Shown piece by piece: positions 21,424-42,704 of a stretch of 42,704 nt of DNA; position 1 is the stretch's first letter, and each line of letters opens with the position of its first letter. The notes beneath the pieces were generated by a model. That model was not told the origin of the DNA and did no database searches. It saw nothing but the letters and a program-made list of their open reading frames with translations. The DNA comes from Candidatus Micrarchaeota archaeon (GTDB lineage Archaea; Micrarchaeota; Micrarchaeia; Norongarragalinales; SBBD01). The DNA is taken from the NCBI GenBank assembly GCA_043813365.1, contig JBDRLB010000052.1:1-42704 (forward strand), in the 5' to 3' direction. The position numbers and the translations under genes are program-made.

Positions 21424-21453
21424 ATTGGGAAAGGGAGAGGCATGGCTGCGCAG

Positions 21454-21468
21454 GATAAATATTTAAAT
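21454..21468 (+). promoter_or_regulatory. BRE-TATA promoter for the mini-pilin (GATAAATATTTAAAT)
   Basis: TATA ends 23 nt before ATG 21492, compatible with a leaderless transcript. Confidence 0.55.
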
Positions 21469-21491
21469 GCCGGAACAGTAGTATGATCAGT

Positions 21492-21605
21492 ATGGAAAGG
21501 AAAGCGCGTGCTCAAACGGCAATAGAATACCTGCTTCTAGTGGGAACTGCGGTAGTTTTCGTCACCATAGTAGCGTACTTCATCAAGACGGCGCTCAATA
21601 AGTGA
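21492..21605 (+). CDS. 37-aa class III signal-peptide mini-pilin (not in the ORF track)
   Basis: Manual translation MERKARA/QTAIEYLLLVGTAVVFVTIVAYFIKTALNK*; [RK][GA]/QxxxEY prepilin motif; alternative in-frame ATG at 21483. Confidence 0.85.
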   Translation: MERKARAQTAIEYLLLVGTAVVFVTIVAYFIKTALNK

Positions 21606-21686
21606 AGGGGTAAAATCTGATTAAAGGAAAACGATTATATCGTTTAGGGCGGATTAGTTTAGGGCAATCGGGGTAGATCCGACTTT

Positions 21687-22802
21687 ATGGCAAAAGATTA
21701 TTACGAGATTTTAGGCGTGCCGCGAAGTGCGGGCAAGGAGCAGATCAAGGATGCATACAGGAAGCTCGCGATGAAATGGCATCCGGATGTAAGCAAGGAG
21801 AAGGAAGCGGAGGCAAGGTTCAAGGAAATTTCGGAGGCATATGCGGTGCTGAGCGACGAGGGGAAAAAGCAGCAATATGATGCATACGGCTCCACTGATT
21901 TCTCTAGGAGGTACACGCAGGAGGATATTTTCAGGAACACGGATTTCGAGACCATATTCAGGACCATGGGCTTCGGGGGCGGCGCTTTCGGGGATGATTT
22001 TTCGGACCTTTTCGGCAGGATGTTCTTCGGCGGGGAAGGGGGGCGCAGAGGGCATGGCGAGGACCTCCAATACGAGATCGGAGTTTCCCTGCAGGATGCT
22101 GCAAATGGTGTTGAAAGGGAATTCACAATCCCGAGGATGGCGAAATGCGAGCATTGCAAGGGAAGCGGAAGCGGGGATGGGAAAAGGAGCGAATGCGGCA
22201 CTTGCAGAGGAAGCGGGCAGGTAAGGAACGTCCGGCAAAGCGGCTTTTCGCAGTTCATCAGCATCATGCCTTGCAGGAATTGCGGCGGAAGCGGAAAAGT
22301 CATAACGGATCCATGCAAGGCATGCAAGGGAAGCGGCAGGGTGAAAGCGGACGAGACGCTGAAGGTGCACATTCCAAAGGGTGCTTACGATGGGTTTGCG
22401 ATGCGGCTGAAAGGGAAGGGGAATTACTCCGAAGGTCATGAGGGCGACCTGTATTTGGTGATTTCAATTGCACGCCAGAAAACTTTCAGGCGGGAAGGAG
22501 GCGACCTGCATTGCGAAGCGGAGGTGCCTTTTGCAGTTGCGGCATTGGGCGGCGAGATTGAGGTGCCGGGCATCGACGGGAAAATCAGCCTGAAAATCCC
22601 GCCTGGAACGCAGCCGGGCAAAATATTCCGGCTTCATGGGAAGGGAGTGTATGATTTGCGCACCCGGGAAACTGGGGACGAATATGTGAGGGTAAACATA
22701 ATTGTTCCGGAAAAGCTATCAAAAAGGCAGAGGGAACTGCTTGAGGAGTTCGAGAAGGAAAATAAAAAGGAGAGGGGATTTTTCGGCAAGATATTCAGAT
22801 GA
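21687..22802 (+). CDS. dnaJ: Molecular chaperone DnaJ (class A)
   Basis: KDYYEILGV, HPD, G/F-rich region, four CxxCxGxG motifs, C-terminal domain (IPPGTQ, GD.YV). Confidence 0.97.
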   Translation: MAKDYYEILGVPRSAGKEQIKDAYRKLAMKWHPDVSKEKEAEARFKEISEAYAVLSDEGKKQQYDAYGSTDFSRRYTQEDIFRNTDFETIFRTMGFGGGAFGDDFSDLFGRMFFGGEGGRRGHGEDLQYEIGVSLQDAANGVEREFTIPRMAKCEHCKGSGSGDGKRSECGTCRGSGQVRNVRQSGFSQFISIMPCRNCGGSGKVITDPCKACKGSGRVKADETLKVHIPKGAYDGFAMRLKGKGNYSEGHEGDLYLVISIARQKTFRREGGDLHCEAEVPFAVAALGGEIEVPGIDGKISLKIPPGTQPGKIFRLHGKGVYDLRTRETGDEYVRVNIIVPEKLSKRQRELLEEFEKENKKERGFFGKIFR

Positions 22803-22832
22803 AAATGATAAGATGGGGGCAAATAGGGTGCT

Positions 22833-24686
22833 TTAGCGTTTTTTGCCGTGCTTCTTCGATGGAGCAGCTGATTTTGCCGCCTTCTTTGGGGCGGAAGGCA
22901 GCTTCACCATCTTTTGCGGTTTTTCCTCCTCGGAATCAAACAGGCTGTTCCCCTTCATAAGGTGCAGGGGCTCCTCTTCGAACAGCGGCTTTACACTCGG
23001 CAGCTCCTTCCTGATTTTTTCAATTTTCTTGTGCACGGAGTCGTTGGTGAAAGGCACGGGCTTATTGCGCACCTTGATTTCCGGCTGGGGCATGTCTTTC
23101 ATTGCACCCTTATTATTTTCTTTTTTGGGTTTTGCCGCCTTTGTTTTTTCGGCCTTTTTCTGGGCAATGCCTTTTTCGGGTTTTTTAACTTCCTTTTTGG
23201 GTTCGCGGTCGTCGGAGATTGTTTTGAGCGCGGCCTTCATCTCCATGAGCTTCGAATGGAGCCGCTGCAGCTTTGCCTCGGTTGAAAGCGTCTTGATGAT
23301 TTCCTTCTTCGCGTCCTCAAAAGTGGGCTCCGGCTCGGCTGCTGGCTGTTCGATTTTCTTCGGATCATCACGGTGCTCTATCACTACGAATGACTTGTCT
23401 CCCGAGGGTATTGACGATTCCGCGCCCTCATTCATACCTGCGCGCTTCTTTACAATCTTTTGCATCTGCGGGGATATCTTTTGGATCGCAGGCGGTTCCT
23501 CAGCGATGTCGCTTTCCGAATAAGAGGGTCCGGGTATTTCGTTCCTCTCCTGCGCTTTGGGCTGCTCCATAATTTGGGACTTCGCAATCGGGTTCGCTGG
23601 CTTTAGAATTGGCTTCTCAGCTGAAGGCATCTGGGGTTTTTGCGGCATGTTGGAAGGAGGTTTTTTGCCCCGGATTATGCTGGAGAGCCTCGATCGGACG
23701 TCATCCTCCGGTTCGGCTTCCGCAATGGGTGCCTCCGCATTTTCCACTTCGTCATATTGTGAAAGCTTCTGCTCAAAATTCTCTATCTCCTGTGTAACCG
23801 AAGGCTGGTTTTCCATCTCGATCGCGCTCGCCATTGCAGGGTCTTCCGCAATTCTTTCAATGGAGGTCTCAATTGCCTCCGCACTGTCCGCCTGCCCGAC
23901 CTTTTCCTCGAGAATTGCAATGGGCGGCTTGTTCGACCTGAAAGGCTGGGGGAGGAACCTATCCGTTGCAAGCCTCAGGCGCTTGAGGATGCCCGGCTTC
24001 TTGACGGGCTTATCGGCTGCGATTATTTCCTCCGCCTGTTGGGGAATTGCTTCGGCTGCAATCCGCATCGGCATTTTTGAGGGAGGCATCTCCTTCTTGC
24101 TGGGTTCCTGCTCGGCCCTTTGGTGCATTGCAGGATGGATGGGCTTCACTTTCGCCTCCTCTTCCTGCCAATCCCTTTCCGGGGAGAGCTGATCGGATTC
24201 GAAACGAGATTCCATGGAAGGCTGTGGCTTCCAGTCGTAATTGAAGCTTTTCATGCCGCTTGTCTTGAAGTTTGATTGCGCAAGCCCCTGGAAATATTTC
24301 TTGTTCACGGTTTCCTTCAGGGATTTTTGCGCCTGCCTAAGTTCCCGGAGGGCGGAATTTATCTCCCTCCGCTCCTTATCAATTGTTTCCTCCTCCGCTT
24401 TGAGCAGCTGGACGTTCCGCTTGTGGGAATTCTGGCGCGCCTCAAGCTCGGAGAGCGCCCTTACGACTGTTGCCTGCTCCTGCAATATTTCCTGCATAGC
24501 TGATTCGAGGTATGTCCGCTGCGAATCCAGCCGCTCCATTTCGCTTTCAACGTCATCACGGACCTTCTCGAGTTCCGTGTCGATTTGCAGCGACTTGCGC
24601 CTTATTGCGACAACGGCCCGCTCTGCGTTTTTCGCCTCAAGATCCAGCTCCAGCAGGCCCTTCAGACGAGGTTTCGGAATCTCCAT
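22833..24686 (-). CDS. Hypothetical protein: N-terminal coiled coil plus long P/E/K-rich low-complexity region
   Basis: 617-aa ORF, GGGGGATGA SD-like motif upstream, heptad pattern in the first ~130 aa, no TM or signal peptide. Confidence 0.8.
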   Translation of the reverse strand: MEIPKPRLKGLLELDLEAKNAERAVVAIRRKSLQIDTELEKVRDDVESEMERLDSQRTYLESAMQEILQEQATVVRALSELEARQNSHKRNVQLLKAEEETIDKERREINSALRELRQAQKSLKETVNKKYFQGLAQSNFKTSGMKSFNYDWKPQPSMESRFESDQLSPERDWQEEEAKVKPIHPAMHQRAEQEPSKKEMPPSKMPMRIAAEAIPQQAEEIIAADKPVKKPGILKRLRLATDRFLPQPFRSNKPPIAILEEKVGQADSAEAIETSIERIAEDPAMASAIEMENQPSVTQEIENFEQKLSQYDEVENAEAPIAEAEPEDDVRSRLSSIIRGKKPPSNMPQKPQMPSAEKPILKPANPIAKSQIMEQPKAQERNEIPGPSYSESDIAEEPPAIQKISPQMQKIVKKRAGMNEGAESSIPSGDKSFVVIEHRDDPKKIEQPAAEPEPTFEDAKKEIIKTLSTEAKLQRLHSKLMEMKAALKTISDDREPKKEVKKPEKGIAQKKAEKTKAAKPKKENNKGAMKDMPQPEIKVRNKPVPFTNDSVHKKIEKIRKELPSVKPLFEEEPLHLMKGNSLFDSEEEKPQKMVKLPSAPKKAAKSAAPSKKHGKKR

Positions 24687-24740
24687 TTCATCCCCCCATA
24701 AAATTTCCCAAAGAGTCCATCAAATAAAATTGTCCCAAAT

Positions 24741-27575
24741 TCAATTCTTCAAGTTTGCCCTGTTCACCGCTTTTGTGATTTTTATGAACGGCACCCCCTG
24801 CGAGTCCTTTGCGATTGCCCCCTGGATCACCACCTGACCTTTTACGGGCGCAGTGAATACGCCGTAGATTGTGCCGCTCTCGTCCTCAAGCTTGATCATC
24901 GATTGCGTGGCGCCTTTCCTCACTGTAGAGGCGTTCGCAGTGATCAATACCCTCTTCCCCTCTGCCGCAGACTTCACCAAATCATAGATGCGCTGCTTAG
25001 AGGATAAAGGTTTTTCCGTTTTTAAGCTTAATGCAGGCGGCTTTGCGGCTGTTTTTTGCGATGGCAAGGATCCGGCAAGTTGGGGGGCCTGTGTGATTGC
25101 GCCTTTCGGTTGCCGCATGCCCTGTTTTGATGCCGGGCCTTTCATCTGGGAAGGCGAGGTTTTTTTCGGGCCCGTTTTTGAAGCTGGCTGCGGAATTTCA
25201 GGCTCCTCTGCGTCCGCCTCCTGCTCTTCGGGATTTTCCTCGGACTCCTGCAGCTCGTCCTCAAGCCGGGAGGTTTCCTCTGCCTGCTCGATCTGCTCAT
25301 CCCCCACATTCCCTTCTATCTCCTGCTCCTCCAGGGGTGCCTGATCGGAAGGTTCTGCTCCGGCGGGCATCTGGGGCGTCCTTGGCAATGGAGCGGTTTT
25401 CATCGGCGCAGCTACTTTTGCATTCCTCTTTGGTGCCCCAATAGGTTCTAGGTTTTGTGCGTCCGTTGAGATTGCATTTGCAGGTTCGCTTCCTTCAGCA
25501 CCTTCAACGGGAGTTTCCTCTACCATCTGGGAAATTTCCTCGGTGCGCTTTGTTTGCACAACGCGTTCCTTGCGCACCTTCATCAGCTCGTCGCGCAATT
25601 TCTGCCTTATTGTCTGCAATTTCTTTGCATGCGTCGCCTTGATGCGCTTGTACTCATCCTCCTTGATCTGGCCTTCGATGTATTCCTCCTCGTTGCTTTC
25701 AAGTATCTGCTCAAGCGCCTCCTTTTCCTCCTGCAAATCTGAAATATGCGGCGGCATCTCGTCCCCTTGCGTTGCTAATTCAAGTTTTGTTTGCAGTTCG
25801 TTTATCATGAGCCGTGCATCCTCGACATCCTTCTTCAGGCCCGCCATGTCTTCGCGCGACACGTAATTGTCCAGCTTGCCGCTCATGGATTCGGTCATGT
25901 TCACTAGCTCTTTCAGCGATTCGGCAAGTATGTCCTGCTTCCCGCGGTAAAGCGTGAACTCGTTGAGCTTGCGGTTAAGCTCCACATAAACCCTTCCAGT
26001 CTCATCCGCCAGCCGCTCCACCTTGGAGACGGTATTGTCAATTTTAGAGCTGCGGTCGGCGATGTCCTTGCTTACTGTTGCGATGTTCTTCAGGCTTCCT
26101 ATGGCATCAAGCATGCCCCTGACACGGTTGAGGTTTTGACCCATGTCCCCGGTCATGGTCTCCATTTTCTCCAAGCGGAATGCCGCATCAGAGATCTGGC
26201 GGTCGCGTTTATCCAGCTCCTTGGCGAACCGCTGCGGCTCAAGGTCCGAAACCATCTCAATGAACTTGTCCAGCTTGGCCTCCTGCTCTTTGGTTGAGCT
26301 TTCCTTTTCGAACAGCATGGTCCGCAATTCCCCGATGCTCTCCCGGATTTGCTCGATGCGTTCCTCCATGACTGACCGCGAGCCTTCAGTGGATTCCACC
26401 TTCACTTTCAGCTTTTCTATCTCCAGCACGATCTTGGCCATTTCCGCTGCTGACATCCCGCTTTCCTCCCCGCCCCCTCCCCGGGTTGTCGGAAGCAATG
26501 GGGACGATTCCTCCTGCTGGGGCGCATTGCCGGATGAATCTGCGGCCCTGTCCGTCTGTGCCTTGTTGTATTCCGCCAGTTCTTCGGGCGTCATTTCCTC
26601 CGGAAGCTTGTCTGCCCACGAGGGCGCGCCTCCCGATTGCGCCGGTGCACTGCCGGATTGGGGAGCTGGAGAGGCTCCTTTTGCAGTTGCTGCCGATGCA
26701 GCCGGCTTTTGTTCTCCCTTGTTCAATTTGCCCATTATTCCTCCTAACATAGATCCCGACCTTTTTTCAGTTTCATTTGACGGATCTGCGGGGGGTTTGA
26801 AATCAAAATCCCTTTGCGGTTCGCGGGTTTTCTTCGGGTTAACGTTCAACGAGCGCATAATATCCGATGCGGGGTCGTCATATGGAAGCGTGGGCTCCTG
26901 TGGTTTTGCGGAGAATTTTGCAAGCCTTTCCTTGAAGGAGATGGGCTTGATAGCTGGCTCCGGTGAAATGTCCGGCAATGGCGCTTCTGCAAATTCATTT
27001 TCAGGGAGGCCGGAAATGGACCCTTCGGGTTCGGGGGAATCTTCAAGTTCATCCGCCTCAATTCGATCCTCCAATCTTGCCCTCCTTGGAATGGTTGGCT
27101 CCGAGAATTTTTCATACAGCCCCGAGGGCGATTCCACTTCTGTGCTCTCGCCGGAATAGCCTCCGGAGATCAGCCGGTTGATGCGCGAAAGCTTCTTGGT
27201 GTTCTCGACCTTCAGCTCGCTGTAGCTTTTTTCCGAAATCGCTCCCTCATTGTATGAATCCTCAAGGAAGGAAAGGAGGGATTCGATGTCATGCTTGTTC
27301 TTCTGCAGCTTTTCCTTCTTTCCCGCAAGCCTGTCATCGTAGTCTTCGGTTTCCTCCTCGGACTCGAGCTTCCTCAGGTTATCGAGGTTGCGGAGTGCCG
27401 CAGTTCGCTCGCTGTTGTAAAGATCAGGGGAAATGGTGCCAGTTTTGTAGGAATGCCCGAGGAAGGAGAGCAGTGCAAGGATGCCCTTCTCCAGGTTTTG
27501 CAGGTCCGCAGCTGGCGCTGGTGCGGATCCCTGCGAAGTGCCTTTTCTGGAAGGGATTTTTTTCACATGACTCAC
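24741..27575 (-). CDS. Hypothetical large cytoplasmic coiled-coil protein with three SHOCT-like motifs and a putative C-terminal OB fold
   Basis: 944-aa ORF, central ~300-aa coiled coil, repeated Y..G.I....Y motif, beta-rich C-terminus (IKLEDESGTI). GTG start uncertain (27575 or 27566). Confidence 0.82.
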   Translation of the reverse strand: MSHVKKIPSRKGTSQGSAPAPAADLQNLEKGILALLSFLGHSYKTGTISPDLYNSERTAALRNLDNLRKLESEEETEDYDDRLAGKKEKLQKNKHDIESLLSFLEDSYNEGAISEKSYSELKVENTKKLSRINRLISGGYSGESTEVESPSGLYEKFSEPTIPRRARLEDRIEADELEDSPEPEGSISGLPENEFAEAPLPDISPEPAIKPISFKERLAKFSAKPQEPTLPYDDPASDIMRSLNVNPKKTREPQRDFDFKPPADPSNETEKRSGSMLGGIMGKLNKGEQKPAASAATAKGASPAPQSGSAPAQSGGAPSWADKLPEEMTPEELAEYNKAQTDRAADSSGNAPQQEESSPLLPTTRGGGGEESGMSAAEMAKIVLEIEKLKVKVESTEGSRSVMEERIEQIRESIGELRTMLFEKESSTKEQEAKLDKFIEMVSDLEPQRFAKELDKRDRQISDAAFRLEKMETMTGDMGQNLNRVRGMLDAIGSLKNIATVSKDIADRSSKIDNTVSKVERLADETGRVYVELNRKLNEFTLYRGKQDILAESLKELVNMTESMSGKLDNYVSREDMAGLKKDVEDARLMINELQTKLELATQGDEMPPHISDLQEEKEALEQILESNEEEYIEGQIKEDEYKRIKATHAKKLQTIRQKLRDELMKVRKERVVQTKRTEEISQMVEETPVEGAEGSEPANAISTDAQNLEPIGAPKRNAKVAAPMKTAPLPRTPQMPAGAEPSDQAPLEEQEIEGNVGDEQIEQAEETSRLEDELQESEENPEEQEADAEEPEIPQPASKTGPKKTSPSQMKGPASKQGMRQPKGAITQAPQLAGSLPSQKTAAKPPALSLKTEKPLSSKQRIYDLVKSAAEGKRVLITANASTVRKGATQSMIKLEDESGTIYGVFTAPVKGQVVIQGAIAKDSQGVPFIKITKAVNRANLKN

Positions 27576-27597
27576 ATCTCATACTCTTTCCGGCATA

Positions 27598-30500
27598 TTA
27601 ACGTTTCCCACCGAAGCTCTTCAGCCTCGCATTCACCGACTCCAAATATGTTTCGCTCATCTTGAACAGCCCTTGCTTTAGCTTGTCGTTTGCAATCTTC
27701 AGCTCAAGCTCTACATCATATGTATCCGTGCCTTTCGCCTTGAGCTCGCCTATCTGCGCCTGCGCTGCCGCAATTTTCTCCTGCACTCCGGTTATCTGGT
27801 CCAGCTCCTCTTCCGTAAGCGCGAATGTGGAGTGCAGCAATGGCCTGAATGACACGAACCACGGCTTTCCATCATTGTATTCGGGGTTCTGCACAAGGCC
27901 CGTGCCGATCGTAAGCTTTGTGATCTTGCTCGCATACTCGATCCCGTACTTCGTCTTGACCCTGCCGATGTCTCCCTCGTACTTCGTGCGCAGCTGGATT
28001 TCATTCGCGATGTTTGCACGCACGGCTCCCTTGAAATCGAGCAATACTTGGGAGATCATGAACATGCCGATTCCCCACTTACGGAACTCGCGGTACCCCC
28101 TCTCCAGCTGGGAGTAAGCGCCTTTTCCTCCGTATTTCGGAAGCAGCCGGTGCACTTCATCGTAAACAATGAGCAGCTTGAGCTCCTTTGACTCAAGCGG
28201 ACGCATGTCGAAAACGGACTGGATGGATCTTCTGACGAAGCCATCCAATTGCGCAGGCTGGAGCTTGTTCATCACGAAAACGGTCATCTCCCCGGGGTTG
28301 AGGTATTTCTTGTAATCGATGGGATGGTTCGGGTCGAGAACGTTGAATATGGTCACCTTGTAGCTCTTCACATCCTCCGGCTTCATGCCGAATTTCGCAT
28401 ATAATGAAAGCATCTGCTTGTCCTTGTTCGGCCTGATGAAACCGGTCCATTGAGCAGTAGGGTCGAAGACTACGATGGGGATGCCGCGCTTCATCAATTC
28501 TTCCGATACCACCTGCGCGGATACTGACTTGCCAGAACCGGTGCCTCCCGCTGCAATTGAGTGTGTCTGTAGCTTGTCTATGTCTAGGTAACAGGACACA
28601 TCCGTTTCTGCTATCCTTCCAACCGGAATGGCACGCGGGCCTGGTTGCGGGAGCTTCTTGTAATCCAACGGCATCACGTACCTCTGGCCCTTCAATTTGC
28701 GCAATTTATATGCTGAGTATGCACGCCTTCCTCCGATGAACATTATTATGCCAATTATTAGCGCGTAGGTAAGCCAGCTGGAAGTGACTGTCTGCACTAC
28801 CAAGCCGGTGACGGAAGTGCCCGCTACTTCAAGCGAATCGGAGCCTACTGAAACTTTCCTTCCTTCGAGGTAAGTTGCCGTTACCTGGAAAATGTAAACT
28901 CCAGATTCGGTGTTCCCGGGAATCTGGGCGGAAGTTGTTCTCGTCACAATGTCGGAGATCTGCACCGTTTCGGAAGAGCTGTATATGGATTTGTCGTCGG
29001 TGAGGCCCTTCAATGCGTATTGCAAACTGACGTCGGTTGCAGCCTCCGCCTCCCCGCGGTTCACAATCGTGACTTCCGCGCGCATCAGGTCGCCCGGCCG
29101 GACGACTTTCGAAAGAACTGCGACTTTTATATCGAGCAGTGGATCCTTCGATTTTTCCACCCGGATCGTTATCGGGATTATCTTTACGACATTGCCGAGT
29201 TTGACAATCATGTCTGCAGTGTAAACTCCGGGGAACGTTGTGTCTGGAATATTTATCGCAATCTTCACTGATTCCGATTGCCTGCTCTTCACAACCAGCG
29301 TTGGCTTCTCTACAGTAATGAATGCGGCAGCATCACCCTCAACAAGGAACGAGCCCGTAAGGTCCGTATCGAGGTTGTTTACCAAATCCACAACTTGCGT
29401 GCGCTTATCTCCGGGCTTAACTGTAAGGTCTATTGCGCTTGCCCTCACCTCAGGAGGCCCTATTCTTCCGCCGCCTTCCCCTCCGCCGGACCCATTTCCA
29501 GCGCCCGCGCCGCCGGCGCCTCCAGCTGTCGGAGTAGCAGTCCCTCCGCCAGTGCCTGCGCCCGTTCCGGTTCCTGCACCGCCTCCGCCGGTTGTAGGCG
29601 TTGCTGTTGTGGTGGCAGTAGGAGTTGCGGTGGCATTCCCACCACCGCAATCCTGACTGCAAACTGCGTTGCTTTCCCCAGTAGAAACTTCGCAAACACC
29701 ATTGCCGCAGACGTACTCGGCAAGGGCGAAGCCCATACTAGCATTTGATGTCACATGCGTGAGCGTGCCCCTTGCAGAATCCCTAATCGAACTGACTCTT
29801 GTCCAATTGTCCATGCAGCCAGAAACGTTCTGGTAAAGCGAACATACATAAATCCCGAGATTGCCCTCGAAGGAATACGGCATCCCGAAGTAATTGAAAG
29901 TGATGTTCGCACTTGCGTAAGTTAGGTTGAGCTTGTATGTCACTCCGGAAAGTGCACCCGCCCCGATCCTGCTTGTCGGGATTATGCCCCAAATTACGGG
30001 ATCATAATAGCTCGCCCTCAAGGGCACGGAAGCAAGTATCAGGTTCTTGTTCCCAATGGAGGCATTCACATAGTAAGTGTCGTTGTAAACAAGCTGGCTG
30101 TAATGGCCGGTAGCGTTCGAGAAGAAATCATACATCACGGATGAAATGTTTGCCGAATTCAGCAGCCTGAACTCTACGGAAAGCGGCGATGCAGTAAGCT
30201 GCTCCGTATCCAATGCTCTTCCTGCAAAAATGATGGCGCTTCTTACTTCAAAAGTTCCCGAAGTGTAATTGCAGTTGTCAGAAGCATCGCATACCCGCGC
30301 ATTCACAGTGTAATTCCCTGCGACGGAAGTGTTGGTGAATACGAGCCTATAGAAATACGAATCGCCGCTCCGCGATAGATAGCTGAATGTGACAGCCTGC
30401 GTGCTTCCTCCGGGGTAGGTGATGTTCGCCTGCACCGCAGTAGAATTGAGGTACATCGTGCCGGTATCGGTCGCATTTATGGTGAGGTTCGCGTACTCGT

Positions 30501-36500: not shown

Positions 36501-39500
36501 CCGCATCGTCATCGGTCACAATTACGGAGAATCTGAATTCTTCACCCCAGCCGCCAAGCGTCTTCAGCGCAGTTGCATTGGAGAACAGCGGGGTGGTTTC
36601 CAGGAAGAAGCTTTCATAATACTTGAAGGTGTTGTTCGCATGGTAGTAGGGCTTGGAGGAGTTCATCGTGACGTCATACCACTGGTAAAGCAGGTTGGAA
36701 GTATTGAAGATGCACTGGTAATTGCCGTTAAGTGGATTCGTGACTGGCGAGCATGCATATATAGCGGCAGTTGCATTGTGGATCGGGTTCAAGCTTACAT
36801 TGGCAGAGCCGATGTCAAGCCCGCAATCATCAAGAAGCGTGGCCTGAATGGTAACGTTGGAACCCTTTGAAACTGTAGAACCCTGGGGCGAAGTGATCGC
36901 ATTTGAAAGGTAGCCAATAACAGTTAAGTTCATGTAATTGCCGGGAGCAGTTGCGTTCGTGGATTTGTAGCATGCATCATCAATTATCCCTGCAGTCCAT
37001 ATCTGGTTCCCTACAAAATAATCGCAAGTTGCAGAGAATGGCAATGGGAGATGGCCTGAAGAATTTGTCTGCGTGCTATTTTCCTGCAGATTACTGCCGT
37101 CAGTTGTAACCCAGAATTTGCCACCCACTCCGGCTACTGCATAAGATGAATTGTCGATATTGTAAACCCTCACTACTAGCGGCCACAGCTGCGACGACCT
37201 GTTGATGACGCTGTTGTTCCCGTAAACTATGGAAACATTGATATCGTTCTTCTCGACCTCATAATTGGTGCTCGGGATCGTACTTTCCACGTTGGTGCCG
37301 TCATTAAGGTTGAAGAAATACAGGGTATTGCTGCTGATGTCGCCACATGTGAAAGTCGTGACATTTATTGTGCACTGGCCGCCTCCGGAAATGTTCATGC
37401 TTCCTTTTGACACGTTGGTCGAGCCTCCGTTTGTGGAAGTGAAGAGCGTGCATAGCACGGTATCCCCTTGCGGATCGCTGATATCAACGGAGAAGCTGAA
37501 GCGCTCGCTCCAGCCTCCGAGCTCGGGAGTGACATTCTGGTTCGAGTAAAGCGGAGGGGTATTCACGAACTCCGTCCAATTGTAGAAGGTAGTGACATTG
37601 CTCAGAAAGCCGCTTTCCGATGAATTGATCTTAAAGCTCCAGTTGCCTCCTTGGTGGAAAGAGGTGTTGAGCGTGCAATTGAACATTCCGCTGCCCATGT
37701 TCTCAACCGGGGAGCAAGTTTCGAGAACGTCATCCGGCGAGATCAGTTGTATGCCCACTGTTGCAGCAGGGCGGACATCAAGGCACTCCGATGTTGCATT
37801 TATGCTTATTGTCAGGTTGTTTGCTACAGGGACTTGCGTGCCATACGGCGGGAATATTACGGGATTCTCGAGCTGACCCCTTACTGTGAACGAATGCGTC
37901 CCGGATTCGTTGATGTCTTGGTAGCACTTGTTCCCCAATGTGCCCGCGAACCAGTTTTGGGCCTGCGAGCTGTAGGAGCAGCTGGGGTTGAAATAATTGG
38001 TTGCAAAGCCGTTTGAGTCCGTAAGCGAAATGTTCCCCGAATCATACGAGGAGCCGTCGGTTGTGATCCAGAATGAGACGTTCAGGTTAGCGGGAACGTA
38101 CGCATTGCTGTGCACATCGTAAACCCTTGCCCTGAAGGTGCCGTTGCCGTTGCCTTCCCTGTCGATGGTCTGCCCAGCGCCTGTTGAGAACTGCACTTGC
38201 ACCAGTTCTTTTGTTATAGTAAACGAGCCCTCCTCGGTCTCATTCGTATTGTTGTTGCTGGAATCTGTTGCATTGAACTTGAAGTAATTCACTTCAATGT
38301 CGTCGCACACGAAGCGGTGCCTGAACGAGACGGAAGTGGGGTTGGTATAGGCAACAGTAGTCTGGTTGTAAAGCACCCAGCTCCCTCCTGCACCAATTTT
38401 CTTGAAGAAGTAGATTGTGAAATTATCTCCTTCGATGTCATTCGCAGTAACGGTGAAAGTCCAAAGCCTTCCCCAGTCATCAGAGACCGCATCCACCTGC
38501 GGGTTGGTAAGCGATGGCTTTGCAGTGAGTATGAAGCCGTTGTAGTTCGTCACTTGGGAGGAATTGTAGTAATCCATTGTGGAATTCATTGTGACGTTGT
38601 AATTCCCAACTTGCAGGTTTTCGGTATCCGTTCCGGGGATGGTGCAGTTGTAATACCCGCTGAGCTCGTCATAAACCGGCGTGCAACTGTATGTGCTGCC
38701 TCCGGCACTCAGCTGTGCGGAAAAGGTAACGGCGGTCTGATTAACGGGATTGGGGCATTCGTCTTCAACCAGCCCACGCAGGTCAATGCCCTGGCCGCGG
38801 TAAAATTTCTGCCCGGTTGGCTGCGTCAAGGTCACGTTCAAGTCGGTAGTGATGTTGAAATCATATTCAGTAGTGTTTGCCAGCTTATAGTCGGGGCTTT
38901 CAAACAAAGTGATGTACCAGTTCTGGTCGCCTGCGCCGAAAACGCAATCCGGATCGAAATCAGTTTTGTTGAGGTAGCCGTTCGGGTCGGAATAAAGGTC
39001 GTAAAATTGGGTGTATGCTGAGCCGTTCGTTGTAACGTTTACTCGGCCGAGCAGCCCGCCTCCGAGGTAACTGAGCCCTTGCGCATCAACATCCCTGGCA
39101 CGTACGGTGAAAACTCCCTGGTCGGTGGTTGACCTCCTTATCGAGAGATTTGCTCCCCAAATGAGTTCCAGCAGTATGTCATCTTTTTCTACAGTATAAT
39201 TCGTGTAATTGGTCTGGTAGGGCGCGTCGCTATTCGTGGCGTTCCATTTGAACGTGTGGTTCCCTTTTGCAGTATTTACCCCGAATGAATAGTTGAAGGT
39301 TACAAGTGTGCCCGAGCCATTTGCAGTTGTTGTATATATGTTCGTCTCCGCCTGCCCTATTTTGCTTTCCCACAGCCTGACGGTTACTGTATCGCTGTCG
39401 GGCTCGTCCACCATTACCGAGAACGTGAAATTCTCGCTCCAGCCCCCTAGTGTAGGCGTGACGTTGTAATTGTATAGTATGGGAATGCTTGAGATTATGA

Positions 39501-42500
39501 AGTTCGAAAGGGTGGTGTTCGCTCCCAGATTGTAATATTGCTTCGTTGCATTTGTTGTGATGTTATAAGAGCCGTAAGGCCTTCCGGTCGTATTGAAAGT
39601 GCAATTGTAGCCGCCATTCGCCTCGTCGTTCACTTGCGAGCATATCACGTTAGTGGTGGAGCGGGATGCGTTGAACAGAACGGTTGCGGAAGTGACCGGA
39701 ATGGAGCAGTCGTCAGAAACGTTGGCCCGGAGCGTTATGTTATTCCCTATAACATACCGCTGGGAATTGAGCGGTGAAAGGAAACGGATGTTCAGGTCTC
39801 CTACGACCGTGACATTGAAATCGGAGGAATTCGTGTAGCTGTAGCAGATGTCTGTCATCCCTCCCTTCCATACCTGTTTCGCTGCGGAATAGCCGCAGGA
39901 GGGGTTGAAATACACTTGCGCATAGCCGCTTGCGTTTGTTGTTGTTTGGTTGCCGGAATCAAACAATGCCGCATCATTGGTCGCCCAGAAGGTGATGTTC
40001 GCATTATTCACGTAAGTCTGGTTTTCCGTGTCGTAAACCCTTACTGAAAGGTAGGCGGCGGCGCCGTTCCTGTTTACGGAGGTCTCGTTTCCCGCCGCAT
40101 AAATCACATTTACGTTTGAGGAAGTGAGGTTCGGGCCTTCGGCAACCGAAGTATTGAATGCATTCGTGGGCTCTGCGTTCAGGATGTAGAATTTGAAGAA
40201 GTTGTCCGTGCCGATCTCCTCGCACGTGAAATCATGAACCTGGACGGTGCAGTTTCCAGAGCCTGCAACGGAGTTCATTCCCTTCAATTTCCAGGTGGAA
40301 TTCCCGTCAATTGAAACGAAAAGCGTGCATGTGACATTGTCGCCCGCAGGGTCGTAGATCTGAACCGAATAATTGTAGGCGCGGGTCCAGCCTGCTTGTG
40401 CAATGCTGACTGAAAGGTTCTCCGCTGTTGCGGTGACGTCGCGCAAATAGAACCATTCATCATAAGTTGTGGAGTTGGAATTGAAATATGCCCTGCTCGA
40501 GTTGAATTGTATCGAATAATTCCCCTGCTGCTTGTTGTTCGAATCCCATGTGCAGTTGTAGTAGCCATCATTTTCATCATTTATCTGGTTGCAGGAATAA
40601 ATCGAATTGTTCGCGGAAACGATCCTCACCGATGTAGTCGTGCCATTTATTCCGCCCTCCATTTGGCAGTCAGATGTCTCATTAAGCCTTACGAGTATCT
40701 GGTTGGATTTGTTGAAGTGCTGCTGCTCAGTTGGGTTGAGGATGGTGTTCTTCAGCTGACCATATACGTCAATTGTAAAGTTTGCAGAGAATTTGTTCTT
40801 GTAGCACGCATCATTATCTACTGCCGCAGCCCACTTCTGCGGCATTGCATAGTAGTTGCAGGTCGCGCCGAAGTAATAGGAAGTGTTGCCTAAGGAATCA
40901 GTTGTGTTTTGGGAGCCGGAATCGAAATTCTCGCCATCGGTTGAAACGTAGAAAACAGTTCTCGTTCCGTTTCCGACAGAGACCGTGCCGCGGTCAGTAT
41001 CATATATTGCAACTCTGAGTAGTTCGGTGCTCGAACCTTCGCGTGTCGCGTTCTTCGCATCCCCTTCTATGTAAACGAGCGACACGTCATCCTTGTCAAC
41101 AGTGAAAGTAGAGCCAGTTACCTCCGTAGTCTGGCCGAACCTGTTGGTTGCATTGAATTTGAATTGCGATGTTCCCGCAGGGGTCACGTCGCCGCAGCTC
41201 AGGGTTTCGGGGAATGAGAGCGTCCCATAGCTCGTGCCCTGGCATTGCTGCGTTTCAATTGCAACCCATGAGTAAGAGGAGTTGAGGCGCTTGTAAAGCG
41301 TGACGTTGAATGCCTCATTGTCATTCTGCTTGCAGTCCACTTGGAAAGTCCAGGATTCGCCCCATCCCGCTGTGACATGGTTGACCTGCGGGGAAGTAAG
41401 GTCGGGATTGATTATTATCCTGAAGCCGGGAGCGCGGGTTCCGTTGTACGAATGGTAATAGCCCTTTGAGGCGATTGCGGTTACGTTATAGCCGCCATAA
41501 ACCTTCCCGTTTGTATCGAAAGAATAATTGTACGTGCCGTTGCCTAAATCCGTGATCCCAGAAGTTATGGAATAGTTCTGCTGCTCGCCGAACAGGTATA
41601 TCGAGGTTGTCGCCCCAGTGATATTCAAGTAGCACTCATCCCTCGCATTGAATGAGATCGGAACGATGCTGGTGCGGTTGTATGCCTCCCCATTCGGCAC
41701 GGAAATGGTTGAAGACATATTGCTCCAAAGGGTTATGTTGTAAGCAGTGGTGTTGATGGACTTGTAGCACGTATTGCCGACTGTGCCAATCTTCCATTTC
41801 TGCAGCCCTACAAGGTAACTGCACGTTGCATCGAAGGTGGAATTGAAGAAGCCGTTTGAAAGCGTGCTCAGCCCTACTCCCGAATCATATTCCGAACCGT
41901 TTGTTGTGATCCACCTCCTTCCTGAAGCCTGCCCCAACGGCAAATACTGGTTGAGGTCTACGTCGAAAACCCTTACGGAGAAAGTCGTTGATTCGGTGTT
42001 GTTCCGGTATTGAGTTGTTGCATTGCCAGTAATGTAATCAAGACGTATGTCATCTTGCTCAACTGTGAAATTCTGCACCCCTGCGGTAGTTACCAGCCCT
42101 GAAGAGTCGGTTGCATTCCACATGAAATTCCATTCTCCCAAATCATCCGGTGCGGGGCATGAGAAGTCCGTCTTTGAATATGAGAAAACAGTATTATTGC
42201 AGTCGCTGTTGCACGTTGGGGAGGCAACAAGCGTCCATGAGCCGCTGCTTACGGGTTTTATATACAATGCGCCGGTAACTGAATCGCCATCCTCATCCAC
42301 CAAGGTCGCATAGAAAGTGAAGTTCTCCGAGTAGCCGCCTGTGCTTCCCGCGTCCCCGTCATTGGTGGAAGTGTTCACAACCGGATTGGTAAGGACTGGC
42401 GAGGTTTGGACGCGGAACGCATTCAGGAACAGGGTGGAGTTTACGTTGTAAAGCGCCTTGGAGCTTTCAGCTGTGATGTTGTAGTATCTTGCATCGAGGC

Positions 42501-42704
42501 TGGTGGTGTTGAGGCTGCAGTTGTATACCCCATCCGATTGGTTGAGTATGTTTGTGCAGTAATAGGTGTTCGGGTCGCGGGTGTAATTGTAGCTTATTGC
42601 CAAGCCGGTTGGAAGCACCGCACTGCACTCGTCCGTCACGTTCAGGCTTATTGTCACATTGGTGCCGCGGTAATAGTTCTCCCCTTGAGGGGTAAGCATG
42701 GAAT
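27598..42704 (-). CDS. Giant (>5,033 aa, 5'-partial) surface protein with Ig-like repeat array, single TM and C-terminal HerA/FtsK-like (DUF87) ATPase
   Basis: Uninterrupted 15-kb ORF open to the window edge; TM WLTYALIIGIIMFIGG (~28729-28776); Walker A GGTGSGKS (28525-28548), VFDPT, Walker B IVYDEVH, REFRKWG...ISQ. Confidence 0.92.
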   Translation of the reverse strand, partial: SMLTPQGENYYRGTNVTISLNVTDECSAVLPTGLAISYNYTRDPNTYYCTNILNQSDGVYNCSLNTTSLDARYYNITAESSKALYNVNSTLFLNAFRVQTSPVLTNPVVNTSTNDGDAGSTGGYSENFTFYATLVDEDGDSVTGALYIKPVSSGSWTLVASPTCNSDCNNTVFSYSKTDFSCPAPDDLGEWNFMWNATDSSGLVTTAGVQNFTVEQDDIRLDYITGNATTQYRNNTESTTFSVRVFDVDLNQYLPLGQASGRRWITTNGSEYDSGVGLSTLSNGFFNSTFDATCSYLVGLQKWKIGTVGNTCYKSINTTAYNITLWSNMSSTISVPNGEAYNRTSIVPISFNARDECYLNITGATTSIYLFGEQQNYSITSGITDLGNGTYNYSFDTNGKVYGGYNVTAIASKGYYHSYNGTRAPGFRIIINPDLTSPQVNHVTAGWGESWTFQVDCKQNDNEAFNVTLYKRLNSSYSWVAIETQQCQGTSYGTLSFPETLSCGDVTPAGTSQFKFNATNRFGQTTEVTGSTFTVDKDDVSLVYIEGDAKNATREGSSTELLRVAIYDTDRGTVSVGNGTRTVFYVSTDGENFDSGSQNTTDSLGNTSYYFGATCNYYAMPQKWAAAVDNDACYKNKFSANFTIDVYGQLKNTILNPTEQQHFNKSNQILVRLNETSDCQMEGGINGTTTSVRIVSANNSIYSCNQINDENDGYYNCTWDSNNKQQGNYSIQFNSSRAYFNSNSTTYDEWFYLRDVTATAENLSVSIAQAGWTRAYNYSVQIYDPAGDNVTCTLFVSIDGNSTWKLKGMNSVAGSGNCTVQVHDFTCEEIGTDNFFKFYILNAEPTNAFNTSVAEGPNLTSSNVNVIYAAGNETSVNRNGAAAYLSVRVYDTENQTYVNNANITFWATNDAALFDSGNQTTTNASGYAQVYFNPSCGYSAAKQVWKGGMTDICYSYTNSSDFNVTVVGDLNIRFLSPLNSQRYVIGNNITLRANVSDDCSIPVTSATVLFNASRSTTNVICSQVNDEANGGYNCTFNTTGRPYGSYNITTNATKQYYNLGANTTLSNFIISSIPILYNYNVTPTLGGWSENFTFSVMVDEPDSDTVTVRLWESKIGQAETNIYTTTANGSGTLVTFNYSFGVNTAKGNHTFKWNATNSDAPYQTNYTNYTVEKDDILLELIWGANLSIRRSTTDQGVFTVRARDVDAQGLSYLGGGLLGRVNVTTNGSAYTQFYDLYSDPNGYLNKTDFDPDCVFGAGDQNWYITLFESPDYKLANTTEYDFNITTDLNVTLTQPTGQKFYRGQGIDLRGLVEDECPNPVNQTAVTFSAQLSAGGSTYSCTPVYDELSGYYNCTIPGTDTENLQVGNYNVTMNSTMDYYNSSQVTNYNGFILTAKPSLTNPQVDAVSDDWGRLWTFTVTANDIEGDNFTIYFFKKIGAGGSWVLYNQTTVAYTNPTSVSFRHRFVCDDIEVNYFKFNATDSSNNNTNETEEGSFTITKELVQVQFSTGAGQTIDREGNGNGTFRARVYDVHSNAYVPANLNVSFWITTDGSSYDSGNISLTDSNGFATNYFNPSCSYSSQAQNWFAGTLGNKCYQDINESGTHSFTVRGQLENPVIFPPYGTQVPVANNLTISINATSECLDVRPAATVGIQLISPDDVLETCSPVENMGSGMFNCTLNTSFHQGGNWSFKINSSESGFLSNVTTFYNWTEFVNTPPLYSNQNVTPELGGWSERFSFSVDISDPQGDTVLCTLFTSTNGGSTNVSKGSMNISGGGQCTINVTTFTCGDISSNTLYFFNLNDGTNVESTIPSTNYEVEKNDINVSIVYGNNSVINRSSQLWPLVVRVYNIDNSSYAVAGVGGKFWVTTDGSNLQENSTQTNSSGHLPLPFSATCDYFVGNQIWTAGIIDDACYKSTNATAPGNYMNLTVIGYLSNAITSPQGSTVSKGSNVTIQATLLDDCGLDIGSANVSLNPIHNATAAIYACSPVTNPLNGNYQCIFNTSNLLYQWYDVTMNSSKPYYHANNTFKYYESFFLETTPLFSNATALKTLGGWGEEFRFSVIVTDDDADTNTVRLFAKKNDTEDWTLYNFTTVVAPSNQLVNLSIYSGALSCSDIGSWNFRFESTDSRGYVTNSTFGNFSLEADDVNLSMAIGDGSTIQRNASASSMLSILVRDTDKDEYLGLGWNITMWITTNTSLYDDGTLLSTNASGYANYQFDPTCSYTAAVQKWKGGTTGNMCYKNTNSSNYSVTLNAPLYPFITFPEGDGFLRGDRVPMNVSLYDECSLVSGATPSFSVRTGSLQPVTCTAITQGGGYYNCTWDSSNRPMGYYNITFSASKNYYISNSTMKGWAFFLGSTPSLSFDSVSPTSDGWGRLYTFTVTVTDADTNPNNVTLWKSLDNVSFAPIDSRIVYTIAGGGTNTSTFEHHFTCGDMGTNYYYFTTQDPFGYNDTTQVKTFTTEKDDVTVTIDASSNTSIRRIGTDIATLKARIYDSDYGIYPDGTAATIYVTLNNSQYGTNYTCATTDGNCTIQHDPVCTTNAGIQYWYAQTVDSCYKDVNSSNTSLTVNGQLYTAVLPNFAGGIALRNRNQTLSASIRDECSSNITDATISWYNETTRLLATNYVANWTVPKNYKLGGTTIYTNASRQYYENGTNSTPLYIRGWSRVTIITPANGTEDVAGSIIPVICQVIDNDTNANITNYPVEFFKDGGLQQTTNTTVNGTTEWQWVTSSELAGIHNVSCIIDNNAYLYYNTSTSTHNISVLLKRQLIIDQIQPDYSSIYRNNSFYPNATNFTIHVKDANIGSAANALVMLFNSSLFPVYNCTTDINGYCNLIYDAPENMTPGSYLLYMNSSKAGNEDSDTNSTPVTVNGVLFSNITTPLNGSFYSKANSADLAVTVLDENSNPISLIATWSNETSQFASTVSNAAPVAFALTSQQTGYRNFTVTSAKAYYDTASSSSIIRISGLADVSVAYPSNGSILTFPLNVTIVCKAFDHDSGAEIPDYNITFAYVDTGGTYSENITTNSSGFATYNYTPGQKGQVNFQCMILDDQPKFYSAYNDFSQVFITELDTRPPVIINTSLIPNQSLETNLNYTQITAYALDDTGVNNVYASISWPNGTIQNITLNPLSNGTYAVNYTPTINGTYSVMIYAVDLPPESNVNSSFAGYFESIGKTNTSIAISPVQITASGITQTSGFQFVISLNLTNYGPVPAYMTNMTISDDSNSEITYNDTFRSCNDIPAGGNCTWAVLVTVLPATPQKLIRITVNATWRDPDLQVLSVTNGTDIIVSANPIVDIVDSAKSLSVFNGFSGVITNVTTAATGNEQLLNVQLTTTGGDIGVLCPGCVISILPNSQGLLAAGSNFTSNISISVPPTQPPGSFYTFVQANASGLTDSVMLNFTLTSNGTWARSPATFGNITVSTNSTGVIGNITVSNNGNVKSTFTFVTSGLNPPLVVLLYDGMQTVAYDIDKQITRNVSVSYIVSASASIGYYPGTVSILASNSSPASQQVTLALNVTDLPPVISNANATPTSIEAIYGNALISATITDNFGITGAWVNITANGSVYQAFLSGTGNYFSAYYNSSVTGNQSIIVCANDTINTVSCSSLFNISVIGTSNVSLFAPAITLYNMTISQGANTTAAISFNNTGVGRVFNVTYNISLPQNFSSYPNSSSLGTLLASNGTAVLMNFSVSKGTAAGTYYANVTINWTNLDNTTGVNLTTIELRIPSESILNISEETVSMSVPAGTAGSSQFTIISEGTSGLSSVTYSCTSGVVCSSFTVSFNPTNIASITSGGSRDVDIQVIVPNGFSPGVYTGLLIANATNTSGDSAIISVVIPSNLSWTQAPSTLSAEVIQGTTGVLGTISISNIGNQLLYLDVLSQGNVSSIISFNTSSLLISPLGSGAIQVNFTAPAASMLVSYYGNATTQNGTATPPDRVTLVNITVHPYNVTIISPTESSPILGVNPGQNISAFVNVTYAGIPLSSNIAFNLTMQDSSIKTLVTLNSQTYSSGIWILNFTAPALATGKSYDLNVTAFDLSRRINLTKVEQRAIGYNDTTAPLVELLTPGTVVLNEYANLTINATDTGTMYLNSTAVQANITYPGGSTQAVTFSYLSRSGDSYFYRLVFTNTSVAGNYTVNARVCDASDNCNYTSGTFEVRSAIIFAGRALDTEQLTASPLSVEFRLLNSANISSVMYDFFSNATGHYSQLVYNDTYYVNASIGNKNLILASVPLRASYYDPVIWGIIPTSRIGAGALSGVTYKLNLTYASANITFNYFGMPYSFEGNLGIYVCSLYQNVSGCMDNWTRVSSIRDSARGTLTHVTSNASMGFALAEYVCGNGVCEVSTGESNAVCSQDCGGGNATATPTATTTATPTTGGGGAGTGTGAGTGGGTATPTAGGAGGAGAGNGSGGGEGGGRIGPPEVRASAIDLTVKPGDKRTQVVDLVNNLDTDLTGSFLVEGDAAAFITVEKPTLVVKSRQSESVKIAINIPDTTFPGVYTADMIVKLGNVVKIIPITIRVEKSKDPLLDIKVAVLSKVVRPGDLMRAEVTIVNRGEAEAATDVSLQYALKGLTDDKSIYSSSETVQISDIVTRTTSAQIPGNTESGVYIFQVTATYLEGRKVSVGSDSLEVAGTSVTGLVVQTVTSSWLTYALIIGIIMFIGGRRAYSAYKLRKLKGQRYVMPLDYKKLPQPGPRAIPVGRIAETDVSCYLDIDKLQTHSIAAGGTGSGKSVSAQVVSEELMKRGIPIVVFDPTAQWTGFIRPNKDKQMLSLYAKFGMKPEDVKSYKVTIFNVLDPNHPIDYKKYLNPGEMTVFVMNKLQPAQLDGFVRRSIQSVFDMRPLESKELKLLIVYDEVHRLLPKYGGKGAYSQLERGYREFRKWGIGMFMISQVLLDFKGAVRANIANEIQLRTKYEGDIGRVKTKYGIEYASKITKLTIGTGLVQNPEYNDGKPWFVSFRPLLHSTFALTEEELDQITGVQEKIAAAQAQIGELKAKGTDTYDVELELKIANDKLKQGLFKMSETYLESVNARLKSFGGKR
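34700..42704 (-). repeat. Tandem ~320-aa protein repeats (8 visible units) inside the giant ORF
   Basis: Recurring xx[WY]xxx[FWY]x[FY] (typically GGW.E.F.F), KDD[VI], C.Y...Q.W..CY and D[ED]C motifs with anchors near 42330, 41365, 40390, 39440, 38475, 37510, 36548 and 35593. Boundaries are approximate. Confidence 0.85.

Follow-up and report, generated by a model that had tools for sequence, protein, structure and literature searches.

A SPEARE-type giant surface protein with a HerA-type ATPase domain and a linked coiled-coil gene in a Micrarchaeota-like archaeon

DPANN archaea need physical contact with a host, and in their tiny genomes, proteins of the SPEARE type occupy several percent of the sequence. 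The stretch of DNA analysed here (42,704 nucleotides (nt), called the window throughout) is the entire contig C52 of a 1.34-Mb genome in 78 contigs that is 88.6% complete. What it holds is very probably the 3' end of a giant gene of the SPEARE type, from a Micrarchaeota-like DPANN archaeon, together with the gene of a dedicated coiled-coil partner and a lineage-specific gene (Table 1). The SPEARE proteins of Nanohaloarchaeota were described as proteins of great length that lie mostly outside the cytoplasm, with a transmembrane (TM) helix close to the C-terminus and an intracellular portion that is conserved (Hamm 2019, PMC6642349; this paper and PMC10266531 are cited here from the available portions of their text).

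The giant open reading frame (ORF) encodes 5,034 amino acids (aa) and is open at the window's end. It is followed by a 944-aa ORF with a GTG start after a gap of 22 nt (27576-27597), and this in turn by a 617-aa ORF after a gap of 54 nt (24687-24740). The ORF coordinates therefore agree with an earlier note on this DNA, which had given three co-directional minus-strand ORFs with gaps of these lengths. The first 4,642 residues of the giant ORF form the ectodomain. A single hydrophobic helix (WLTYALIIGIIMFIGG, residues 4643-4658) comes next, followed by RRAYSAYKLRKLKGQR, and the approximately 375 residues after the helix contain the ATPase motifs GGTGSGKS (residues 4719-4726), VFDPTAQW (4745-4752), LLIVYDEVH (4843-4851) and REFRKWGIGMFMISQ (4871-4885). 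This is the architecture that the earlier note had read from the sequence, with a giant N-terminal ectodomain, one TM helix and an intact P-loop ATPase.

The number of N-x-S/T sequons in the ectodomain was 265 (4,655 aa counted) compared to 99 ± 8 in 200 composition-preserving shuffles, which bears out its description as sequon-rich, and no sequon was found in the 344 residues counted past the helix. The restriction of sequons to the N-terminal side, together with the basic residues after the helix and the positive-inside rule, points to a cytoplasmic location of the ATPase, as had been proposed. Two other descriptions of the ectodomain held in part. It had been called Cys-rich, and the enrichment is moderate only (77 Cys, 1.65%). 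It had also been called repeat-rich, which is true at the protein level, where self-comparison gave offsets of 320, 640, 960 aa and so on, corresponding to approximately eight units with approximately 30% identity over residues 1-2600, but not at the DNA level, where no tandem repeats were found in the giant ORF.

Table 1. Positions in the window of the giant gene, of its parts and of the two genes behind it
Feature	Position	Strand	Remarks
Giant gene, 3' part	27598..42702	-	5,034 codons and stop of SPEARE-type surface protein; 5' end beyond contig
Ectodomain part 1, residues 1-2600	34903..42702	-	~8 diverged immunoglobulin-like (Ig-like) repeat units of ~320 aa; sequon-dense; Big_7 and Big_1 matches
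Ectodomain part 2, residues 2601-4642	28777..34902	-	Non-repeated beta-sandwiches and Gly/Thr/Ala-rich linker; NPCBM_assoc, Glyco_hydro_123_N_2, MG2 and Filamin matches
Family-conserved juxtamembrane beta-sandwich	~28825-28902	-	Conserved alignment columns before the TM helix; strands 17-27 and 32-42 of AlphaFold2 (AF2) model
Transmembrane helix WLTYALIIGIIMFIGG	28729..28776	-	Followed by basic stretch; helix 59-88 in AF2 model
HerA-type (FtsK-HerA superfamily) P-loop ATPase core	27817..28689	-	Pfam, fold and profile matches
Walker A	28525-28548	-	GGTGSGKS
VFDPTAQW	28447-28470	-	Sequence motif
Walker B	28150-28176	-	LLIVYDEVH
REFRKWG...SQ block	28048-28092	-	Sequence motif
C-terminal three-helix tail	27601..27813	-	Named 'coiled coil at the tip' where SPEARE proteins are described
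Coiled-coil partner (P0002 family), 944 aa, predicted cytoplasmic	24741..27575	-	Conserved gene linkage; AF2 model
Two N-terminal helical motifs of the partner	27165-27503	-	AF2 model
Conserved helical core of the partner	25518-26450	-	AF2 model, residues 376-686
Coiled-coil/disordered protein, 617 aa, lineage-specific	22833..24686	-	Relative in 1/80 loci

The window ORF is probably the last ~40% of a protein of ~12,000 aa, of which ~3,200 aa are unassembled. Contig C46 of the same genome carries a 4,191-aa ORF (3-12575, minus strand) with its C-terminus off the contig start, and the repeats of this ORF are of the same type as those at the N-terminus of the window ORF (E 9e-64); a paralogue on contig C73 did not match them. 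A close relative, genome G001, has one uninterrupted ORF of 12,373 aa on a 187-kb contig. The first 85 residues of this ORF shared 56% identity with the beginning of the C46 ORF, residues 97-4145 aligned to the C46 ORF with 43% identity, and residues 7342-12373 were collinear with the window ORF with 63% identity over 5,043 aa. Downstream of it, as in the window, there are orthologues of the 944-aa and 617-aa proteins, DnaJ, a pair of T2SSF genes and a T2SSE gene with an intein, and a small divergent upstream gene is common to G001 and C46. It is on this synteny that the ORFs of C46 and C52 are assigned to one gene. In a second relative, an open frame matching the N-terminus was found near the end of a 1.30-Mb contig and the ATPase near the start of that contig, which would fit one gene lying across a circular join.

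The N-terminus encoded on C46 consists of a short segment predicted to be cytoplasmic, a signal-anchor helix and then a Pro/Ser/Thr linker. The short segment gave a weak match to MazE_antitoxin (AbrB-like; E 0.0074, below cut-off), and this AbrB/MazE-like stub is present in G001 and absent from the G003 orthologue, so that it is a genus-level feature at most. The order of parts in the full protein is probably the N-terminal stub, the signal anchor, the Pro/Ser/Thr linker, dozens of glycosylated Ig-like modules, the juxtamembrane beta-sandwich, the TM helix, the ATPase and the three-helix tail.

The earlier note had named a misassembly as a possible origin of the join between ectodomain and ATPase. 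In favor of such a chimeric contig, the window's contig terminates within repeats and the public contigs over the region are short. Five public DNA-type sequencing runs from three studies each contained at most 0.37 of the sampled words, and no RNA run was listed. The Logan contigs of four such runs over 22705-42704 were 99% identical and at most 877 nt long among the pieces listed, and none of these pieces bridged the TM/ATPase junction or extended past the contig end. However, the same junction is present in hundreds of independent assemblies and within the 12,373-aa ORF on the 187-kb contig. These findings clearly show that the fusion is real, and an artefact of assembly hardly deserves consideration.

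The ATPase domain and its family

The C-terminal 450 aa of the giant ORF matched the Pfam families DUF87 (43.6 bits, cut-off 23.2, E 4.8e-11) and HerA_C (41.2 bits, cut-off 22, E 1.2e-10). Conservation was judged on an alignment of the TM helix, ATPase and tail of 11 diverse relatives. The Walker A glycines and Lys, VFDPT.QW, the DE of Walker B with H-R-L-L behind it, and REFRKWG.G...SQ were invariant in all 11 sequences, as were D412, E414, E416, A420, K423 and Y435 of the C-terminal tail. The AF2 model of the same region had a mean pLDDT of 86.4 and a pTM of 0.78, and the tail was modelled as three helices (380-405, 411-425 and 429-448) with a pLDDT of approximately 90.

When this domain was compared with known structures, HerA was the best match by each of three methods, in agreement with the HerA-like ATPase proposed in the earlier note. 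Foldseek against the PDB gave Sulfolobus HerA 4d2i as the best match (2.7e-13), and in a VIA-align comparison with 48,161 chains 4d2i_B was at the top (Z 25.8, root-mean-square deviation (rmsd) 3.0, 256 residues aligned). The family profile searched against PDB sequences also found HerA best (3.3e-14), with eight HerA-type chains at E <= 2.1e-8 compared to 0.011 for FtsK, 0.025 for IcmO and 0.26 for TcpA, and no chain named VirB4 was listed at E <= 1. In the fold comparison, the Z values were 24.2 for DndH-C, 23.4 for VirB4 (4ag5; rmsd 2.6, 235 aligned), 18.4 for TrwB (1e9r), 17.5 for FtsK, 17.2 for TcpA and approximately 17 for EccC. The fold score of VirB4 is within ~2.4 Z of that of HerA, and fold alone does not separate the two. 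This places the domain in the HerA/VirB4 part of the FtsK-HerA superfamily, with HerA favored on sequence.

The domain is an orthologue of no curated family. The scores against HerA_Thermprot (32.8 bits) and helicase_HerA (25.1 bits) were under the equivalog cut-offs of 800 and 970, respectively. Type IV secretion system (T4SS) families were not reached either, with 18.8 bits against 20.1 for T4SS-DNA_transf and 27.7 bits against 567 for TraC-F-type. The earlier note had drawn a comparison with the Ced DNA-import system, which fails on sequence: CedD scored 29.3 bits against a cut-off of 600, and CedB was not listed for the ATPase domain at E <= 0.01. With HerA (4d2i) the domain shares the RecA-like core, Walker A, a DPxxxY/W strand, the Walker B DE and R-x-x-R-K-x-G-x-G...SQ. 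Unlike HerA, it is tethered to the membrane behind a giant ectodomain, and its gene has coiled-coil genes, DnaJ and pilus genes as neighbours instead of the NurA, Mre11 and Rad50 of HerA operons. A separate gene for a soluble HerA-like protein of 567 aa was found on contig C62 of the same genome. VirB4, VirD4/TrwB/TcpA, FtsK, EccC and CedB/CedD have the ring-ATPase fold and the membrane tether in common with the window ATPase. In contrast to these translocation ATPases, it is anchored by a single helix on the C-terminal side of an ectodomain and not by N-terminal helices, it does not reach their family cut-offs, and no T4SS, type VII secretion system or CedA partners were found nearby.

The earlier note had put the locus forward as a candidate undescribed system, and this part of its proposal does not stand, since the architecture has been published as SPEARE and as 'giant membrane-anchored extracellular proteins' (PMC6642349, PMC10266531). 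In the first of these papers the protein was detected by proteomics, the ectodomain was stated to carry at least one laminin-G domain, the intracellular part was taken for a restriction enzyme, and similar sequences were noted in Woese-, Aenigm- and Micrarchaeota and Altiarchaeales, those of Micrarchaeota resembling the intracellular part (Hamm 2019, PMC6642349). In the second, which did not use the laminin-G criterion, the intracellular part was reinterpreted as a VirB4/TraG-like ATPase with a coiled coil behind it, a secretion 'straw' was proposed, and a protein of 9,409 aa was called the largest in cultivated archaea (Reva 2023, PMC10266531). The available portions of the two papers thus disagree on the identity of the cytoplasmic domain, which the window assigns to the HerA branch of the FtsK-HerA motors. 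ResIII matches were found in 8 of the 11 aligned family members, and this explains the restriction enzyme label.

The window protein resembles SPEARE proteins in its great length, its adhesion-type Ig-like domains (Big_7, Big_1, NPCBM_assoc, MG2 and Filamin), the single TM helix near the C-terminus, the predicted cytoplasmic P-loop ATPase with a helical tip behind it, and the presence of several copies in a small genome. A 7,378-aa protein of Nanohaloarchaea was 53% identical over the TM helix and ATPase, and a locus of a Nanohalarchaeota metagenome-assembled genome (L023) 58% identical; both serve as proxies for the named SPEARE proteins (NAR1_1133, SG9 proteins and SVXNc_0300). Ectodomains vary widely across the family. 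The window protein may differ from the SPEARE proteins in domain content, as no laminin-G, protease or beta-propeller domain was found in 9,225 aa, and no LamG family matched at E <= 0.01 in the 4,600 aa of the window or the 4,190 aa of C46, with ~3,200 aa of the protein unassembled. Its likely length of ~12,000 aa also exceeds the 9,409 aa reported from cultivated archaea, and the N-terminus differs in the genus of the window, being an AbrB/MazE-like cytoplasmic stub with a signal anchor. The window shows a member of the family in Micrarchaeota.

That the giant protein is itself the 'straw' of an effector-injecting, T4SS-like system, reaching into the host and powered by a VirB4/TraG-like ATPase, was proposed in PMC10266531, and VirB4 is structurally close (4ag5, Z 23.4). 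The sequence profiles given above favor HerA instead, without a VirB4-named chain at E <= 1 and with T4SS-DNA_transf under its cut-off. We know of no case in which Ig-like beads form a tube. Moreover, the gene directly downstream in the related loci described below is that of the coiled-coil partner and not the second VirB4-like ATPase found in the two cultured nanohaloarchaea SVXNc and BNXNv (PMC10266531). Effector injection through such a straw is accordingly an improbable explanation of the locus.

The TM helix, ATPase and tail were found together in 203 of 1,303 scored proteins (2,768-8,810 aa) with 34-84% identity (41-84% over 120 of these as listed), and the relatives were labelled Micr-, Aenigmat-, Nano-, Nanohalo-, Parv-, Woese- and Pacearchaeota. 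The nearest relatives of the giant protein (84% identity) were labelled Candidatus Micrarchaeota. This DPANN setting supports the host-dependent archaeon assumed in the earlier note. A scan of species genomes gave at least 563 confirmed among at least 587 pattern matches, and a profile search of 1.84 billion cluster representatives gave 429 clusters at 50% identity with E <= 1e-30. At the same E value, a match was present in all seven of the other genomes of the window genome's family and in 15 of the 301 genomes of a phylum sample (12 of the 176 of high quality).

Several paralogues with very different ectodomains are present per genome. In the genome of the window, contig C73 encodes another giant protein, at least 2,833 aa long (6642-15140, minus strand; N-terminus off the contig; locus L086) which differs in its ectodomain and is 46% identical over the TM helix and ATPase, and which has its own 536-aa coiled-coil partner (4942-6549, minus strand). 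These data bear on the possibility that the giant protein belongs to the envelope independently of any host, as a coat or sheath glycoprotein with a cytoplasmic anchor and no relation to symbiosis. The sequon-saturated, Ig-rich ectodomain does resemble archaeal surface-layer glycoproteins. However, an essential coat would be expected to be universal and uniform, and the patchy occurrence in the phylum (15/301 genomes) and the diverging ectodomains of the paralogues make a coat unlikely.

In a Woesearchaeota-labelled relative (P0090, 3,933 aa), an extra domain of ~200 aa was found past the ATPase and helical tail, for which the precomputed Pfam list includes PF05763; the cytoplasmic end can therefore be extended in some lineages. 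The same TM helix and ATPase (58% identity) with a coiled-coil partner was also found on a 3.5-kb contig labelled Candidatus Heimdallarchaeota (L046); a genuine Asgard copy seems less likely here than the mis-binning of a contig from a DPANN archaeon.

Genes linked to the giant gene

The neighbourhood was sampled at 80 related loci, each with at most 10 kb downstream. When the downstream ORFs were clustered, the P0002 family, of which the window's 944-aa protein is a member, was found in 74 loci, always co-directional with the giant gene, the median offset being 26 nt and the median length 542 aa. A hidden Markov model built from 45 members added the loci L036, L053, L035 and L022, so that the partner immediately follows the giant gene in 78 of the 80 loci; the other two have less than 250 bp downstream. 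The partner is thus essentially always encoded beside the motor, and this linkage supports a functional connection between the giant gene and the first downstream gene.

The earlier note had spoken of two coiled-coil scaffold genes. This held for the 944-aa family and not for the 617-aa protein, which was related to an ORF of just one of the 80 loci (L036, the closest relative) and was also syntenic in G001. Its candidacy as a second member of the partner family was rejected (hhalign probability 0.1 against that family), and it matched no NCBIfam family. The 617-aa gene is lineage-specific and lies outside the conserved module.

Neither the 944-aa nor the 617-aa protein matched a Pfam family at E <= 0.01, and Pfam found nothing on the partner's motif segments alone. 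All relatives of the partner were labelled 'hypothetical' and were without Pfam domains. In the AF2 model of the partner (mean pLDDT 61.5), two N-terminal helical hairpins (pLDDT approximately 95) and a core (376-686) are joined to long disordered linkers. Foldseek against the PDB gave nothing at E <= 0.001 (best OST1 cytoplasmic domain, 0.12, and CdvA, approximately 0.45), and the nearest ESM Atlas clusters were unnamed archaeal ones. A two-chain prediction of the ATPase (85-450) with the partner core (370-705), run with no controls, scored 0.01 against a mark of 0.32 and counts neither way.

A second anchored glycoprotein and archaeal MinD were frequent companions, in 35 and 19, respectively, of the 47 loci having at least 9 kb downstream. 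The glycoprotein family (~1,950 aa) has a signal peptide, NPCBM_assoc and MG2 domains, one TM helix at the C-terminus and a short tail. Elsewhere in DPANN, the MinD and glycoprotein genes were downstream of the giant gene at most loci. The copies in the genome of the window are on C46, a short way upstream of where the giant gene starts (loci L084 and L085), with MinD at 14952-15788 and a 2,144-aa glycoprotein at 15838-22269, both on the minus strand, and this MinD passes TIGR01969 (209.8, cut-off 201.75). A shared helical motif, approximately L-x-x-L-E-x-x-Y-x-x-G-x-I-S-x-x-x-Y-x-x-L-K, was seen in the tails of 30 of 32 glycoproteins and in 60 of 74 partners, compared to 2 of the 223 remaining neighbouring ORFs and 4 of the 1,830 ORFs of this genome; the pattern was written after the sequences had been viewed, and only the background rates are independent. 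In the available portion of the SPEARE literature, supplements aside, no link of SPEARE genes to the coiled-coil partner, the second glycoprotein or MinD was found.

Small expressible pieces are now defined by these comparisons, namely the 375-aa cytoplasmic domain, the motif and core of the partner, and the tail of the glycoprotein.

A few loci also had histidine kinases, a response regulator, a small GTPase or a small HExxH membrane protein. The last is a multi-pass protein of ~157 aa with the motif HELGH and no Pfam family, found in 15 of the 80 loci (for example L045:14709-15179, minus strand), and it is possibly a small metalloprotease. It is of interest because the extracytoplasmic and cytoplasmic parts of a SPEARE protein were found in different size fractions (Hamm 2019, PMC6642349).

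Possible function at the host contact

We tentatively propose, with a probability of roughly 0.4, that the giant protein belongs to a host-contact apparatus in which a HerA-like ring motor drives the transfer of a polymer. The ectodomain would bind the surface of the host cell. The ATPase domains would form a HerA-like ring under the membrane, as ring formation is known from relatives of the ATPase, and several ectodomains would be gathered at one site. ATP hydrolysis would then drive a polymer, most likely nucleic acid and otherwise unfolded protein, across the symbiont membrane at the site of contact, and the coiled-coil partner, the tail of the second glycoprotein and MinD may build and place the cytoplasmic base. 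The transfer of a polymer is suggested by the membrane-tethered relatives VirB4, TrwB, FtsK and EccC, which are translocation motors; to our knowledge, this is true of all characterised membrane-tethered members of the superfamily in the fold list.

Several observations weigh against ATP-driven transfer. Its main weakness is that no channel-forming neighbour is conserved. No candidate for a multi-pass channel was found among the conserved neighbours at the 80 loci, where the partners are soluble or single-pass, and six single helices make a poor pore. Among the conserved families within 10 kb downstream of these loci, no channel or pilus components of a T4SS were found (the search did not extend to the upstream side or to other parts of the genomes), nor was any linked T4SS or Ced component, with the scores of the VirB4, VirD4 and Ced models far under their cut-offs. 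The partner set of a coiled-coil protein and MinD looks more like a scaffold or positioning module than a secretion system, and the motif that connects partner and glycoprotein was defined after the fact. The distribution in the phylum is patchy. Finally, no contig-end overlap joining C52 to C46 or C73 was found, and the assignment of C46 and C52 to one gene comes from synteny, not from reads.

Because no channel-forming protein is conserved nearby, a scaffold or hub from which nothing is pumped is a serious rival. In such an attachment organelle, ATP-dependent ring assembly would cluster, anchor or remodel the giant adhesins, and the partner, the glycoprotein tail and MinD would form a cytoplasmic plaque and set its position. 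This arrangement suits the conserved partners, which are a cytoplasmic coiled-coil protein, a single-pass glycoprotein whose tail has the same motif, and MinD, and many of the matched HerA structures are platforms for the assembly of partner enzymes (SIR2-HerA and DUF4297-HerA, from entry titles only). On the other hand, the membrane-tethered superfamily members in the fold list are translocation motors, and the catalytic residues show a strict conservation that a static anchor would not require. On balance a scaffold is possible without being probable, and only a small remainder is left for none of the explanations considered here. A paper on the attachment organelle of YN1 (PMC11420986) makes no mention of the terms HerA, ATPase, SPEARE or coiled.

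A broader version of the host-contact proposal is more speculative still. The adhesin, its obligate partner, the glycoprotein of ~2,000 aa and MinD might together make up one ATP-driven trans-envelope contact organelle that is common to DPANN archaea and serves the uptake or hand-over of nucleic acid or protein; we regard this as rather doubtful. Such a machine, which the papers cited here do not present as a unit, could be the large envelope complex that cryo-electron tomography (cryo-ET) has shown at the junctions of DPANN archaea and their hosts, in Microcaldus a 21-nm barrel (PMC11329633, from the available portion).

Pilus genes and other content of the window

The remaining content of the window is archaeal and includes DUF655, RpoF/Rpb4, an archaemetzincin, acetyl-CoA synthetase subunits and a type IV pilus operon. 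Linkage to type IV pili was considered as a general feature of the giant gene and was rejected, as pilus genes were found beside it only in L036 among the 80 loci. DPANN-specific cytoplasmic coiled-coil proteins (CCPs) that are linked to pili and proposed to act in host interaction were described in a preprint (Hamm 2023, 10.1101/2023.02.24.529834). The coiled-coil genes of the window adjoin its pilus operon in the same manner, a likeness by description. Unlike the CCPs, the giant-gene loci are pilus-linked only in the closest relative, and the available part of the preprint ties CCPs to the pilus and not to SPEARE.

The pilus operon includes a T2SSE gene for an assembly ATPase of the type IV pilus/archaellum type (16287-19181, plus strand) which is split by an intein with LAGLIDADG and helix-turn-helix (HTH) parts, as it is in G001, and is followed by two T2SSF platform genes (19377-20522 and 20527-21423). 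Divergent from it, a block on the minus strand (12963-16144) contains six ORFs without Pfam matches. Two short ORFs of this block (14638-14991 and 14982-15461, minus strand) start with MQLKGQ... and MQLRGQ..., followed by a hydrophobic helix, as in class III (type IV pilin-like) signal peptides, and they probably encode pilins. Next to this block, a secreted protein of 943 aa (10124-12955, plus strand) was found with a signal peptide, a weak match to DUF1565 (beta-helix) and a NedA-like galactose-binding domain, and it is a candidate glycan-binding surface protein.

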